Source: Dehalococcoidia bacterium (GTDB taxonomy: Bacteria > Chloroflexota > Dehalococcoidia > Lucifugimonadales > UBA1127). From it: a stretch of 64,000 nt of DNA. The position numbers were made by a program, and so were the translations under genes. Shown here piece by piece: positions 2,282 through 63,146 of the stretch (position 1 is the first letter of the stretch; every line of letters begins with the position of its first letter). The stretch is taken from positions 226 to 64,225 of the forward strand of contig JAPYRQ010000002.1 of NCBI GenBank assembly GCA_029936935.1, read 5' to 3'. The notes below the pieces were generated by a model. The model ran no database searches. It was given only the letters and a program-made list of their open reading frames with translations, and was not told the origin of the DNA.

Positions 2282-3778
2282 TTAGAGTGCTGAGCCGTGA
2301 TCCAAAGGCTTGGAAATCAGGCCTTCAATCTGGTCGACCATCGCGCTCTGGTCATAGGCGCGGAGCATGTTGACGCGGTTCCTTGTGGGGTCACCACCGT
2401 GCCAGTACTCGTAGACTTCCTGGCGCATCCCGAAGGATGACACTGCCAGTTCATGGGCCAGACGATACAGGCGGGACTTGTACTCAACGTCCACATCCTT
2501 CCCAATCATGTACATGTCCAGGTACTTGCGGATCTCAGGGTTGGCCAGGTCTGCCTCGCTGGGCTGCATGATGAGACCGGAGCCGGATATCTCGCGCAGG
2601 ATCTCCACCATGCGCTTGGAGGTGTGGGCGAACCAGTTCTGGAGGGCCTGTGCGCCGCCTCTGGGCTGTTGGCCGTCCTTGATGTAGGTGGTCTCTTCAA
2701 CGCCTTGCATGGCGTAGCGCCACATTTCGCAGTAGGAGACCATCTCGCCGAGCTTGGCGGAAACATCGCGGAAATCGTACACGCCAATGGACTTGGCGAT
2801 CATGGTGGCCACAGCGGTCATCAGCTTCATGCGGAAGTGGACGCGGCACATGTTTGACCAGCCCAGGAGGTTGAGGCCGCCGCCGAAGCCGGGGCCCATG
2901 GGTGGCTGATCGTACAGCATGAACACGCGATCCCAGGGAACAAGGACGTTGTCGAAGAAGAGCATGGCGTCCTGTTCGTCATAGTTGATGCCCAGTGGGT
3001 GGCCCCAGGTTCCGGGCCAGATGGATACAGGTTCTCGGCAGAGGGTCTTCAAGCCGGGTGTGCCGCTGGAGATGGAGAAGGCCATGTAGAATCGCGGGTC
3101 TGCCCGTCGGGAGAAGGTGGCAGATAGTGACACGTAGCACTCATTGGTGACGGGCGCTGCCGTGGCCAGCTGCTTGGCGCCGCTGACGATGATGCCGTCT
3201 TTGGTCTCCTCGACTACGTGTAGTGCTGTGTCTTCCTCTTTGACCTCACGTCGCTCGTTCTGGGGCTGCTGGCTGCGATCAATCTGAGGGTCGCCCAGCG
3301 CGTGGGTCAGGAACAGGTCGTTCTCACGACAGAGTCGAGTGTAGTTGATGATGTTCTCTTCAAAGTCACAGTGCTCGTTCTTAATCTGACCAAGGGCATC
3401 GCGGCGGTTGTACAGCATGAGGATGTACGGTGCCAGGATGTCCGGCCCGCGGCCTAGCTGACCCCATGACTGTTCGTTCCAGACTTCACTGTTGCGTCGC
3501 TTCAGACGGGTCTGTTCAAGGGACTCGGGCACCATCCATGAGATGCTGACCCTGTTACCGGTATCCGGGGAGACGTACGTCATCTGATCCCGATACTCGT
3601 CCATGTGCTGAAGGTCGTAGATACGAGCCAATTCCTTGGCCATTGGGGCGAACGCCGGGTGGGTGGTCACGTCATCGACTTTTTTGCCGTCGATGTACAC
3701 CTCGCGACCGTCCTGCAGGCTTTTGATGAACCGCTCTCCTGTCATTGCCCCTTCGGGCTTAGCTGTGTCCAATACCAT
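2282..3778 (-). CDS. HpaB-family flavin-dependent monooxygenase, oxygenase component (4-hydroxyphenylacetate 3-hydroxylase / AbfD fold)
   Basis: 498 aa. The N-terminus (ERFIKSLQDGREVYIDGKKVDDVTTHPAF) and overall length are typical of the HpaB_N/HpaB family. It is a paralog of 60049-61539. Confidence 0.85.
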   Translation of the reverse strand: MVLDTAKPEGAMTGERFIKSLQDGREVYIDGKKVDDVTTHPAFAPMAKELARIYDLQHMDEYRDQMTYVSPDTGNRVSISWMVPESLEQTRLKRRNSEVWNEQSWGQLGRGPDILAPYILMLYNRRDALGQIKNEHCDFEENIINYTRLCRENDLFLTHALGDPQIDRSQQPQNERREVKEEDTALHVVEETKDGIIVSGAKQLATAAPVTNECYVSLSATFSRRADPRFYMAFSISSGTPGLKTLCREPVSIWPGTWGHPLGINYDEQDAMLFFDNVLVPWDRVFMLYDQPPMGPGFGGGLNLLGWSNMCRVHFRMKLMTAVATMIAKSIGVYDFRDVSAKLGEMVSYCEMWRYAMQGVEETTYIKDGQQPRGGAQALQNWFAHTSKRMVEILREISGSGLIMQPSEADLANPEIRKYLDMYMIGKDVDVEYKSRLYRLAHELAVSSFGMRQEVYEYWHGGDPTRNRVNMLRAYDQSAMVDQIEGLISKPLDHGSAL

Positions 3779-50359: not shown

Positions 50360-50902
50360 ATGATGGATCTGTTGAATTTGGTAGACAAATTGGAAACCCT
50401 GGCCACTACAAGCGGGAAGGTTCCCGGCACCCGCAAGATCCTGGTTGACCAGGAGAAGGCTCTGGAACTGGTTGACCAGATGCGCCTTGGGATTCCCAAG
50501 GACATCCAGGAGGCCGAGGAGGTGATGGCGCGACGTGAGGCCATCATCAACCAGTCACTGCTGGATGCACGACGCATCAAGAGTTCAGCAGAAGACGAAG
50601 GCCGGACCAAGGTGAACGAGAGCGAGATCGTCGCCGAAGCTCAGGCTCAGGCAGATGAGATGCTTGCAGAGGCCAAACAGCGTGCGGACGCTCTGGTGCA
50701 GGACGCCCAGAAGAAGGCGCACCAGACAATGCAAGAAGCTCAGAGCTTTGCTGACAACCGCGTAGAAGAGGCCAACCGTTACTCGCAGGAGACGCTCTAC
50801 AACCTGGAACAGCACCTTTCCATCGTGCTGAACAGCGTCCGGCGAGGCCTGGATAGCCTGGAAGACCAACCTCTCGTTTCTCAAGAAGCACAAACAGCAT
50901 AA
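50360..50902 (+). CDS. Coiled-coil protein of unknown function (ATP-synthase-b / DivIVA-like composition)
   Basis: 180 aa, highly charged Ala/Glu/Gln-rich heptad-like sequence (AEAQAQADEMLAEAKQRADALVQDAQKKAHQTMQEAQ). No catalytic motifs seen. Confidence 0.6.
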   Translation: MMDLLNLVDKLETLATTSGKVPGTRKILVDQEKALELVDQMRLGIPKDIQEAEEVMARREAIINQSLLDARRIKSSAEDEGRTKVNESEIVAEAQAQADEMLAEAKQRADALVQDAQKKAHQTMQEAQSFADNRVEEANRYSQETLYNLEQHLSIVLNSVRRGLDSLEDQPLVSQEAQTA

Positions 50903-51028
50903 ATACCAGAGGGACTGTCCATTTGGTGATGGCCCCTCTGGATGTATCTACTAGTGAGAGCCCTGACATCGACGGCGCGATGGGAGGGCTAGTTTGACGT
51001 GTGCCCAAAGTGCTGTGACGTACTACGG

Positions 51029-51056
51029 TTGACAAACCCGGCACTTCCTGTAGGAT
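51029..51056 (+). promoter_or_regulatory. Sigma-70-like promoter candidate upstream of the DAHP synthase leader
   Basis: TTGACA (51029-51034), 16 nt, TAGGAT (51051-51056). Confidence 0.4.
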
Positions 51057-51110
51057 GAGTTAGCTATGGGTAACATAATGCACTACCAGTTGACAGAGAA
51101 ATTTTATTAC

Positions 51111-51132
51111 TTTACCGGCATATTTACCGGCA
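51111..51132 (+). repeat. Perfect 10-bp direct repeat TTTACCGGCA-TA-TTTACCGGCA
   Basis: Read directly: copies at 51111-51120 and 51123-51132, inside the aroG leader. Confidence 0.85.
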
Positions 51133-51179
51133 GGGGTGGCATTGCGTAGACCCTAGAGACCCAAGAGTTTTGACGCTGA

Positions 51180-51211
51180 ACCCCCGCCGAGAATTGGACG
51201 AGGGTTTTTTT
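51180..51211 (+). terminator. Terminator-like hairpin plus U7 tract, 54 nt upstream of the aroG ATG (candidate attenuator)
   Basis: ACCCCCGCC-GAGAATT-GGACGAGGGT. This is about 9 pairs with one mismatch and one bulge. TTTTTTT follows at 51205-51211. Confidence 0.4.
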
Positions 51212-51264
51212 ATTGGGCTTTGGGCCAGATGCACAAACTCCCCGAACAATGAGGATGTGAGGTT

Positions 51265-52317
51265 ATGGAAAAAACAACAGTACAGGACGTGAACGTCGTG
51301 AGCACATCGGCCCTGGTCAGCCCCAACAGTCTTGCAGAGGAATCTCCTATCACACCGGAGATAGCTGAACACGTGGTGCATGGTCGCGGTCAGGTCAAAG
51401 CCATCATGGACGGTACGGACCCAAGGTTGCTCATGATTGTTGGCCCGTGCTCCATCCATGATGAGGCTGCGGCGCTGGAATACGCTGAACGATTAGTAGC
51501 ACTTTCCGCCAAGGTGAGTGACCGAATCATGGTGGTCATGCGTGTGTACTTTGAGAAGCCTCGCACCACTGTTGGGTGGAAGGGTTTCGTCTATGACCCT
51601 AACCTCGACGACACATTCGATATTGGGTCAGGGCTTTCACGAGCACGGGCATTGCTCACCAAACTTGGAGATATCGGCGTCTACGCAGCCACGGAGTTCC
51701 TTGACCCCATCGTGCCGCAGTATCTTGCCGACCTGGTGACATGGGCAGCCATAGGCGCACGTACTATCGAGAGCCAGACACATCGCCAGATGGCCAGCGG
51801 CCTGAGCATGCCCGTTGGATTCAAGAACAGCACGGACGGTGCCGTCCAACCTGCCGTCGACGCAATGGTGTCAGCGCGATCGCCTCATGCCTTCCTCGGC
51901 ATCGATCACGCCGGGCAGACCTGCATCGTGCAGACAAAGGGAAACCCCTTGGGACACCTGGTTCTCCGTGGCGGCAACACTGGCTCCAACTTCAGTGCTG
52001 AGGCTATCGCATTGGCTTCTGCTCGTTTGGAAAAGGCCGAGGCCAGGCCACAAATCCTTGTGGATTGCAGCCACGGAAACTCGGACAAAGACTATGCCAA
52101 GCAGGCCATCGCCTTCCGAGATGCGGTGGAGCAGCGTGCAGCAGGTACAAAGAACATGATCGGATGCATGATGGAGAGCCACCTGAACCCCGGTAAACAG
52201 GCGCTCAGCGGTGATACTTCCAAGCTGGAGTACGGCGTTTCCATCACCGATGCGTGCATCGGTTGGGACGAGACGGACTCGCTGCTGACCTGGGCCTATG
52301 ACACCATGTGCAAGTAG
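51265..52317 (+). CDS. aroG: 3-deoxy-7-phosphoheptulonate (DAHP) synthase, class I (AroF/G/H type; isoenzyme specificity unknown)
   Basis: 350 aa. It is collinear with E. coli-type DAHP synthases: VGPCSIHD, RVYFEKPRTTVGWKG, WAAIGARTIESQTHRQMASGLSMPVGFKN, ITDACIGW. Confidence 0.93.
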   Translation: MEKTTVQDVNVVSTSALVSPNSLAEESPITPEIAEHVVHGRGQVKAIMDGTDPRLLMIVGPCSIHDEAAALEYAERLVALSAKVSDRIMVVMRVYFEKPRTTVGWKGFVYDPNLDDTFDIGSGLSRARALLTKLGDIGVYAATEFLDPIVPQYLADLVTWAAIGARTIESQTHRQMASGLSMPVGFKNSTDGAVQPAVDAMVSARSPHAFLGIDHAGQTCIVQTKGNPLGHLVLRGGNTGSNFSAEAIALASARLEKAEARPQILVDCSHGNSDKDYAKQAIAFRDAVEQRAAGTKNMIGCMMESHLNPGKQALSGDTSKLEYGVSITDACIGWDETDSLLTWAYDTMCK

Positions 52318-62566: not shown

Positions 62567-62669
62567 TGCCTTCCTCCTGGTAGGAATGAGTAGATGGTGT
62601 GGGGCTTTGGCCACAGTGTACAACACCTAACTTGGCTTTAAGACTGGATACAGCTATACTGTGGCCACT

Positions 62670-63089
62670 ATGCCAATATATGAATTTCGATGCGGTAGCT
62701 GTAATTCCAAGGTTGCGATCTTCTTCAAGTCAATGACTACGGATGCGACCGGCACGTGCGAGCACTGCGGTAGCACCGACCTCCGGAGGTTGTTCTCAGC
62801 CTTTCGAGTGATGAAGCCAGCCTTCAACGTGAACAACCTGAACAAACAGGAACTCCTGGACGGGGTGAACTACACCGATCCCAGGTCAATGGCCAACTTC
62901 TTCAACAAGATGCAGGACACCTTCCAGGATGAGCCGAATGAGCACATGACTGAGATGGTCTCTCGCTTGGAGAAGGGTGAAGCCGTGGAAAAGGCCATGG
63001 ACCTGGATATGGGTTCCAACCAAAAGGGTGGCGATAGCCATGCTGGGCACAACCATGGCCCGGTAGGACCTGCGCCGGGCGGCGACTAA
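62670..63089 (+). CDS. FmdB-family zinc-ribbon putative regulatory protein
   Basis: MPIYEFRCGSCNSKV...CEHCGSTDLRRLFS is the CxxC...CxxC FmdB/TIGR02605-type N-terminus. The alternative start is ATG 62661. Confidence 0.75.
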   Translation: MPIYEFRCGSCNSKVAIFFKSMTTDATGTCEHCGSTDLRRLFSAFRVMKPAFNVNNLNKQELLDGVNYTDPRSMANFFNKMQDTFQDEPNEHMTEMVSRLEKGEAVEKAMDLDMGSNQKGGDSHAGHNHGPVGPAPGGD

Positions 63090-63112
63090 TCCAAGCAATC
63101 TCTTGAACGTTT

Positions 63113-63146
63113 AGAAAGGCCTGCTACTCAGCAGGCCTTTCTTTTT
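63113..63146 (+). terminator. Intrinsic terminator
   Basis: 12-bp stem AGAAAGGCCTGC / GCAGGCCTTTCT with a 6-nt loop, followed by TTTT. Confidence 0.75.

Follow-up and report, generated by a model that had tools for sequence, protein, structure and literature searches.

A probable leaderless Phe/Tyr leader-peptide attenuator upstream of the DAHP synthase gene aroG in marine SAR202 Chloroflexota

INTRODUCTION

The closest known case to the locus described here is the aroR-aroF system of Corynebacterium glutamicum, the likeness being one of functional analogy only. The aroR leader peptide, which carries the sequence Phe-Tyr-Phe, attenuates aroF, a gene for 3-deoxy-D-arabino-heptulosonate 7-phosphate (DAHP) synthase, and stalling of the ribosome at the Phe/Tyr regulatory codons raises downstream expression, with only limitation of Phe and not of Tyr being reported as active (Neshat et al. 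2014; PMC11802643, PMC4046766, PMC7356990). Corynebacterial leader peptides are also described as translatable without a ribosome-binding site (Morbach 2000, cited in PMC4046766). Here we analyze the leader of the DAHP synthase gene aroG in a stretch of 64 000 nucleotides (nt) from a Dehalococcoidia bacterium (contig JAPYRQ010000002.1, positions 226–64,225, forward strand). This whole stretch is called the window below, and all positions refer to it unless another locus is named.

We find that this leader very probably is a ribosome-mediated Phe/Tyr leader-peptide transcription attenuator, which would match DAHP synthase expression to how much charged tRNA-Phe and tRNA-Tyr is available. An earlier reading of the window from its sequence alone had already suggested a candidate attenuator at 51029–51264 and had seen in it a T-box-like antiterminator core. 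It had also called transcriptional attenuation unusual for a DAHP synthase of the E. coli type, which was too strong, since the aroR-aroF case of C. glutamicum has been published (PMC11802643, PMC4046766).

RESULTS

A conserved leader ORF with Phe and Tyr codons precedes aroG

The aroG gene at 51265–52317 (forward strand) encodes a type I, E. coli-type DAHP synthase (PF00793 at 1.2e-81). The stop codon of the upstream gene, which encodes 180 amino acids (aa), ends at 50902 and the aroG ATG lies at 51265. In the gap between them the listing of short open reading frames (ORFs) contains a frame that had gone unnoticed in the sequence-only reading:

51066–51149, forward strand: leader-peptide ORF, 27 codons plus TAG, MGNIMHYQLTEKFYYFTGIFTGRGGIA
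51102–51113, forward strand: regulatory codons F13-Y14-Y15-F16 (TTT TAT TAC TTT), the F/Y(/W) cluster common to all leader ORFs
51111–51132, forward strand: direct repeat TTTACCGGCA-TA-TTTACCGGCA, perfect 10-nt copies at 51111–51120 and 51123–51132

The ORF has three Phe and three Tyr codons; besides the FYYF cluster these are Y7 (51084–51086) and F20 (51123–51125). Its TAG stop codon (51147–51149) falls within the antiterminator that had been proposed for the T-box.

Three sets of loci were used for comparison: aroG loci of species-representative genomes, aroG loci from metagenomes and eight closer relatives with AroG proteins 71–93% identical to that of the window, which were found via exact-protein look-ups. 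The window and these eight relatives make up a SAR202 group of nine loci. The closest named relatives of the window AroG come from SAR202 cluster bacteria or Chloroflexi (91–92% identity), and its best genome matches are metagenome-assembled genomes of Dehalococcoidia with 60–65% identity. A homologous ORF is present in all eight closer relatives, as is the gene order of the window, and homologous leader peptides were found in L167–L176, L002–L008 and L083 (for example MSNAMPYQFTWNFYYFTGTFTGRGGVA in L167, MTTRVSYQYGYFFTGTSIGRGIAV in L173 and MSITLSYQYGYFFTGTYCGRGGAV in L174). In the alignment of the closer relatives the leader ATG is invariant, insertions and deletions (indels) measure 9 and 12 nt within the ORF and 1–3 nt downstream of it, and the stop codon is TAG, TAA or TGA but always occupies one and the same column. 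Given the invariant start, the codon-multiple indels and the fixed stop column of changing identity, this is the signature of a coding sequence and not that of an RNA motif.

The perfect direct repeat noted earlier is present in the window and represents a 12-nt (4-codon) duplication encoding FTGI/FTGR. In L169, a 91%-identical relative (positions 516–649), a clean 12-nt deletion leaves a single copy of TTTACCGGCA and the peptide reads MSNAMRYQFTWDFYYFTGRGGVA; the duplication is thus dispensable.

An intrinsic terminator follows the leader ORF

Direct folding of the sequence between the leader ORF and aroG gave the following structure:

51178–51211, forward strand: intrinsic terminator, imperfect hairpin 51178–51207 with U7 at 51205–51211

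The U7 tract ends 54 nt ahead of the aroG ATG and the stem is imperfect, both as had been described before. The hairpin has a ΔG of −12.3 to −12.8 kcal/mol (z = −1.9; 11 of 200 shuffled sequences fold as well), and because of its imperfect stem it was not found in a strict terminator scan. The fold of the whole leader is no better than that of shuffles (z = −0.78). By itself the window sequence is therefore not statistically striking, and it is the conservation in relatives that shows the element to be real. Among 34 leader-bearing loci examined, 32 have a hairpin and a T/U run after the ORF, with ΔG values between −12 and −28 kcal/mol; the exceptions are L084, in which the T/U tract behind the hairpin is interrupted, and L127, in which no terminator was found. 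The window terminator is the weakest of its clade, with L169, L171 and L172 reaching −18 to −19 kcal/mol. When the terminator structure of the window was imposed on the SAR202 alignment only 77% pairing was obtained; in L173–L176 the hairpin lies in a different register, each sequence having a good hairpin of its own.

The end of the leader ORF can compete for the terminator arm

The last codons of the ORF and the region behind it contain the elements of a competing pairing:

51128–51147, forward strand: antiterminator 5′ strand (region 2), CGGC-A-GGGGU-...-GCGU, codons 21–27 up to the TAG stop
51173–51189, forward strand: antiterminator 3′ strand (region 3), ACGC-...-ACCCC-C-GCCG, overlapping the terminator 5′ arm
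51148–51165, forward strand: tandem 9-mers AGACCCTAG/AGACCCAAG directly after the leader stop, of which ACCCU pairs with GGGGU at 51133–51137

The segment GGGGTGGCATTGCGT at 51133–51147, on which the T-box proposal was based, is present as described. In order to mimic the footprint of a ribosome, the window RNA was folded from different 5′ boundaries. With the first free nucleotide at 51120–51128 the minimum free energy (MFE) fold is the antiterminator (−24.6 kcal/mol), composed of the helices CGGC 51128–51131:GCCG 51186–51189, GGGGU 51133–51137:ACCCC 51180–51184 and GCGU 51144–51147:ACGC 51173–51176. With the first free nucleotide at or before 51115, CCGG pairs with CCGG, GGGGU pairs with ACCCU (51150–51154) and the terminator forms; the terminator also forms when the first free nucleotide is 51131 or later. 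A ribosome whose A site is at codons 15–16 protects the RNA to about 51120–51123, which is the boundary where the antiterminator wins. The GGGG:CCCC and GCGU:ACGC pairings put forward from the sequence are thus part of the MFE fold once the RNA 5′ of about 51120–51128 is removed, and the alternative folds switch with the 5′ boundary of the free RNA.

The CCGG palindromes of the direct repeat, at 51115–51118 and 51127–51130, are complementary to one another and could form an anti-antiterminator (1:2 helix); the hairpin made of the two is predicted in every fold in which 51115 is free. The tandem 9-mers may serve as a decoy that would hold region 2 off the terminator arm when no ribosome is stalled; their ACCCU pairs with GGGGU in folds of the RNA starting at 51062, 51110, 51131 and 51133. 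In L169 the antiterminator strand would remain free only if the ribosome stalled at the first codons of the cluster. The near-identical strains L161–L166 provide no informative variation except for L166, which has an identical AroG protein and two leader substitutions at the equivalents of 51109 and 51130: A51109G changes Y15 to C, and G51130A changes G22 to D and breaks both the second CCGG and the CGGC helix of the antiterminator.

An equilibrium test including the complete terminator did not discriminate between ribosome positions and was replaced by co-transcriptional folding truncated before the 3′ arm. For the window this gave a 5′-arm pairing of ∼0.7 with the ribosome at or before FYYF and of ∼0.3 with the ribosome from codons 18–20 to the stop, and the same step just past the aromatic cluster was observed in about half of the other loci scanned. 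Compared with dinucleotide shuffles, pairing of the terminator 5′ arm with the segment between cluster and terminator was higher in 33 of 33 loci (mean 0.76 versus 0.55 for shuffled sequences, Wilcoxon p = 2e-10, the loci not being phylogenetically independent). In explicit folds the partner of the 5′ arm was always the last codons of the ORF, and different terminators were matched by different ORF 3′ ends:

L019: ORF 3′ end AAGGGC, terminator 5′ arm GCCCUU
L098: ORF 3′ end CCGGGGGUU, terminator 5′ arm AACCCCCGG
L174: ORF 3′ end GGGGAGGAG, terminator 5′ arm CUCCUCCCC

The antiterminator derived from the window was also imposed on the SAR202 alignment. In the nine relatives 95.6% of the pairs are standard pairs, versus about 48% (43–55%) in slid controls, and two pairs show compensatory changes, one from UA to GC (columns 72/116, once) and one from CG to UA (columns 80/111, seen in three sequences). 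The covariation score of the antiterminator was reached by only 2 of 500 shuffles. The part of the sequence-only reading that concerned an attenuator leader with promoter, intrinsic terminator and competing antiterminator is supported by these data, including the covariation in relatives that it had named as a check.

Aromatic leaders recur at distant aroG loci

At more distant Dehalococcoidia loci the mini-ORFs are either related or unrelated and have only the aromatic run in common (MKVTRGGCGYCYYFFTGCLPAGGGLVC, MSTACRQIVPGYFRPFYFYAYR..., MIQNYFTYYYYFKKRRANCRV), and some deltaproteobacterial aroG loci likewise possess aromatic mini-ORFs (MCKEAVTSATYFGFYFYFSRGAPVVC, MIRPISALFFFWFYFSKDKDRFAWGD). 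The F/Y/W mini-ORFs of the distant loci are followed by terminators. We counted aromatic clusters in ATG mini-ORFs within 300 nt upstream of aroG and found at least five aromatic residues in six consecutive ones at 21 of 153 loci on the sense strand, compared to none of 153 on the antisense strand and none of 765 shuffles. The whole architecture is kept down to 56–65% AroG identity and into other phyla.

The collection contains further arrangements. In L006 (Dehalococcoidia; 2880–3003, compared with L004:2735–3003) the conserved promoter (GTTGACTTCAACCC...GAGTAGTAT) runs almost straight into the ribosome-binding region of aroG: the leader ATG is now AAG, neither the body of the leader ORF nor the terminator is present and the junction lies between the short repeats TTACCTGGG and TTACCCGGG. 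This locus appears to be a natural case of attenuator loss and looks like a constitutive variant. L009 (2905–2985), also from Dehalococcoidia, has about four tandem copies of a unit of ∼18 nt (CCAGCGAACCCTTGA-like) between the attenuator terminator and the aroG start. A Dehalococcoidia subgroup without terminator (L013, L016 and L039, at about 2860–2950, and L082:1284–1364) has a different conserved frame upstream of aroG that ends in ...(L/S)FT(R/C)xGSxSxSY(S/R/C)* (MTYTRYNMFFFAWSPSFTRQGSGSYC in L082) and may represent a different, perhaps translational, leader control. In the deltaproteobacterial loci L051 (2440–2530) and L070 (1755–1850) peptides of the FFFWFYF and FYFWFYF type are followed by two successive hairpin/T-run terminators instead of one.

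The leader ORF starts directly behind a conserved promoter

The promoter candidate that had been noted from the sequence is present:

51029–51056, forward strand: promoter, −35 box TTGACA at 51029–51034, 16-nt spacer, −10 box TAGGAT at 51051–51056, matching at 10 of 12 positions

It is the sole sigma-70-like site within 1.2 kb (50500–51700), where shuffles average 0.4 sites. TTGAC is invariant across 16 aligned relatives, and the layout TTGACAA-16-TAnnAT-9-ATG is found at fixed spacing in all nine loci of the SAR202 group; in other groups the distance between −10 box and ATG is 7–10 nt. As the leader ORF starts 9 nt past the −10 box and a Shine-Dalgarno sequence is lacking, it is probably translated from a leaderless or nearly leaderless mRNA. 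Further upstream, ∼40–70 nt ahead of the −35 box, an inverted repeat AGCCCTGACATCG/CGATGGGAGGGCT is located at 50959–50990. Its core CATCGACGGCGCGATG is kept in the 84–93% identical relatives L167, L169, L171 and L172 but not in L173–L176, and it could be a putative transcription-factor site acting on the leader promoter.

Alternative explanations

In the T-box proposed from the sequence, an uncharged tRNA (e.g. tRNA-Trp) would bind a UGGC bulge and stabilize the antiterminator, making the element a reduced member of that class. The sequence GGGUGGCAUUGCG indeed matches 10 of the 12 fixed positions of the T-box core and the flanking helices GGGG:CCCC and GCGU:ACGC exist. The arithmetic of this match is correct, but the match is at chance level: a scan with GGGTGGNACCGCG allowing up to 2 mismatches yielded 7 matches in the window compared to 8.6 ± 2.8 expected by chance. 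The UGGN bulge is not conserved either. The window has TGGCATT, yet ATCGCC is found in L173, AATTGCC in L175 and CGGTGTT in L176 with the flanking helices kept; in L174 the equivalent AGGAGCC is paired and not bulged, and the shifted CGGTG of L176 happens to contain TGG. The Rfam search that the sequence-only reading had suggested, carried out for 50850–51320 with relaxed filters, gave no match to RF00230 or any other family at E ≤ 10. At the gathering threshold Rfam returned nothing in the window besides two tRNAs elsewhere, and there was no Rfam match in the leaders of 20 related loci; neither this locus nor these 20 leaders matched the covariance models of the amino-acid leader families (Phe_leader, Trp_leader and others). 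A Stem I with a specifier loop, a K-turn and a distal platform was not found in the ∼65 nt upstream of the antiterminator, a space that is taken up by the conserved coding ORF with its codon-multiple indels, and the leader as a whole folds no better than shuffles. The T-box reading is effectively refuted by these results and retains almost no probability; the sensor is very probably a ribosome translating Phe/Tyr codons and not an RNA that binds tRNA.

The existence of alternative structures does not by itself reveal the sensor, and the same switch might be operated by a protein that binds RNA (TRAP- or PyrR-like), by a small RNA or by a metabolite, with the aromatic ORF being incidental. We regard this as highly unlikely, as the ATG, the frame through indels of 9 and 12 nt and a stop position of changing identity would not be kept in an ORF that is incidental, nor would F/Y/W clusters recur in non-homologous leaders ahead of the same gene across phyla; moreover, no repeated protein-binding motif (GAG/UAG triplets) and no Rfam aptamer was found. 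Another possibility starts from the C-terminal part of the peptide, FTG...GRGG[IV][AV], which might act as a TnaC-like arrest peptide that senses free Phe or Tyr in the exit tunnel and not the scarcity of charged tRNA. It would agree with the conservation of F-T-G through synonymous third-position changes (ACC/ACT, GGC/GGT/GGA) and with the stop codon inside the antiterminator. However, the motif occurs in one clade only whereas other aroG leaders share just the aromatic run, and the requirement for pairing with the C-rich arm of the terminator accounts for the Gly codons (GGN). Arrest at the stop codon would cover region 2 and cause termination at abundance, the same sign as in the simple model, so that nothing extra is explained and the arrest peptide is exceedingly improbable. 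Finally, there might be no regulation at all: the hairpin and U7 could be a remnant or could terminate the upstream gene, and the mini-ORF could be a product of chance. The weak statistics obtained for the window alone (leader z = −0.78, hairpin z = −1.9) would fit such a view, but the upstream gene is separated from the hairpin by a conserved promoter and has a hairpin of its own at 50906–50941, and the architecture is kept to 56–65% AroG identity and in other phyla; we give this explanation very little credence.

Proposed mechanism of attenuation

In the leader-peptide attenuator that we favor, transcription would start at, or a few nucleotides before, the ATG at 51066, and the 27 codons of the leader would be translated while RNA polymerase moves ahead. 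If Phe-tRNA or Tyr-tRNA is scarce, the ribosome would stall on F13-Y14-Y15-F16 (51102–51113) and cover the RNA to about 51114–51126. Region 2 (51128–51147) would be left free and could pair with region 3 (51173–51189) once this is made, which would sequester the 5′ arm of the terminator and allow readthrough into aroG. If the charged tRNAs are plentiful, the ribosome would reach the TAG codon (51147–51149) and cover region 2, so that the hairpin 51178–51207 with U7 could form and transcription would stop near 51211. When the leader is not translated, the CCGG:CCGG and GGGGU:ACCCU pairings would tie up region 2 and the terminator would form as well.

The features by which attenuators of this type are recognized are found here: a short ORF in the 5′ leader that relatives retain as an ORF, clustered codons for amino acids that are end products of the pathway (FYYF, codons 13–16), an intrinsic terminator between leader ORF and structural gene and, computationally, an antiterminator that is allowed with a ribosome at the regulatory codons and blocked with a ribosome at the stop codon. 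What the sequence and its comparison with the relatives show is the ORF with its aromatic codons, the terminator and the pairing that competes with it, together with the conservation of all these features.

Several points weigh against this mechanism. The transcription start, translation of the ORF, stalling, termination at 51211 and readthrough are all inferred. With the complete terminator present, equilibrium folding yields the terminator at nearly every ribosome position in most loci; as equilibrium favors the terminator, the model depends on co-transcriptional kinetics, as in classical attenuators. The window terminator is weak, with a G-to-A change relative to L169, L171 and L172, and the window copy may be leaky. 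The covariation comes from a close alignment and amounts to few independent changes. The 1:2 helix comprises only 4 bp, and one of the repeat copies is absent from L169. Were the ribosome to stall at F20, it would mask part of region 2 and termination would not be relieved.

Neighborhood of the locus

The gene neighborhood in the window consists of rpoB (reverse strand), an rsmD-like gene, coaD, the 180-aa gene, aroG and polA. The 180-aa gene (50360–50902), between coaD and the leader, adjoins the aroG leader in all SAR202 relatives. It has no Pfam match in the window; most of its orthologues show a weak match to Scy (PF28068), with none in three loci (L167, L169/L172, L173). Directly after its stop codon lies the perfect 8-bp, GC-rich hairpin at 50906–50941 (CCAGAGGG...CCCTCTGG), which has no U tract and an equivalent in all closer relatives, and which is probably the 3′ end structure of the 180-aa gene. 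A thiamine pyrophosphate (TPP) riboswitch (RF00059, 63.5 bits) located 3′ of aroG at L004:4576–4687 is unrelated to the attenuator. Elsewhere in the window, a W-rich ORF (62977–63066) followed by a strong hairpin and T-run (62977–63142 in total) resembled a trp-type leader; this candidate was rejected as spurious because the ORF overlaps the 3′ end of a 142-aa gene (62661–63089) and the hairpin is the terminator of that gene, located between convergent genes.

DISCUSSION

The analysis corrects a tempting T-box annotation to a leader-peptide attenuator. The entry step into aromatic amino-acid synthesis in the abundant, uncultured marine SAR202 bacteria is probably under classical leader-peptide attenuation. 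A regulatory use of leaderless translation and of transcription-translation coupling in Chloroflexota is suggested as well. The mechanism is well known and nothing is added to it; the interest lies in the phylum with its uncultured marine SAR202 members, in the leaderless layout and in the breadth of the family. In the literature we found no earlier description in Chloroflexi and none of other DAHP synthase leaders besides aroR of C. glutamicum, although the coverage of this search was incomplete and does not prove novelty. The leader family in marine SAR202 Chloroflexota is absent from Rfam and appears to be undescribed.

Whether the window holds the founding example of a widespread family is, in our judgement, an evenly balanced question. 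Such a family would consist of undescribed leaderless Phe/Tyr(/Trp) attenuators that control type I DAHP synthase throughout SAR202/Dehalococcoidia, and the versions in deltaproteobacterial (Desulfobacterota-like) genomes would be convergent or related. If it exists, tight transcription-translation coupling and sensing by leaderless mini-ORFs would operate in Chloroflexota. The comparative set of ∼35 leaders with promoter, ORF, antiterminator and terminator could seed an RNA family model and improve the annotation of small ORFs in this phylum.

Among known systems, T-boxes (RF00230) share with the locus the choice between terminator and antiterminator upstream of an amino-acid gene, and they reportedly control DAHP synthase genes in some Firmicutes (Panina et al. 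2003, cited in PMC1262725). They differ in that Stem I with its specifier loop, the conserved T-box sequence and a covariance-model match are lacking here. The enterobacterial leaders of pheA (pheL) and pheST (Rfam Phe_leader) belong to the same mechanistic class: they too have a leader ORF with successive aromatic (Phe) codons and an intrinsic terminator, and their 1:2, 2:3 and 3:4 structures exclude one another. In contrast to them, the SAR202 leader precedes the gene of DAHP synthase, the first common step, has mixed Phe and Tyr codons, matches no Rfam leader and appears to be initiated in a leaderless fashion, whereas initiation at the pheA and pheST leaders is driven by a Shine-Dalgarno sequence. 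With aroR-aroF of C. glutamicum it shares a short Phe/Tyr leader peptide directly upstream of a DAHP synthase gene, and its leaderless layout recalls the corynebacterial leader peptides without ribosome-binding site. The two systems belong to different phyla, SAR202 Chloroflexota here and Actinomycetota there, and the aromatic cluster is longer here (FYYF plus Y7 and F20).

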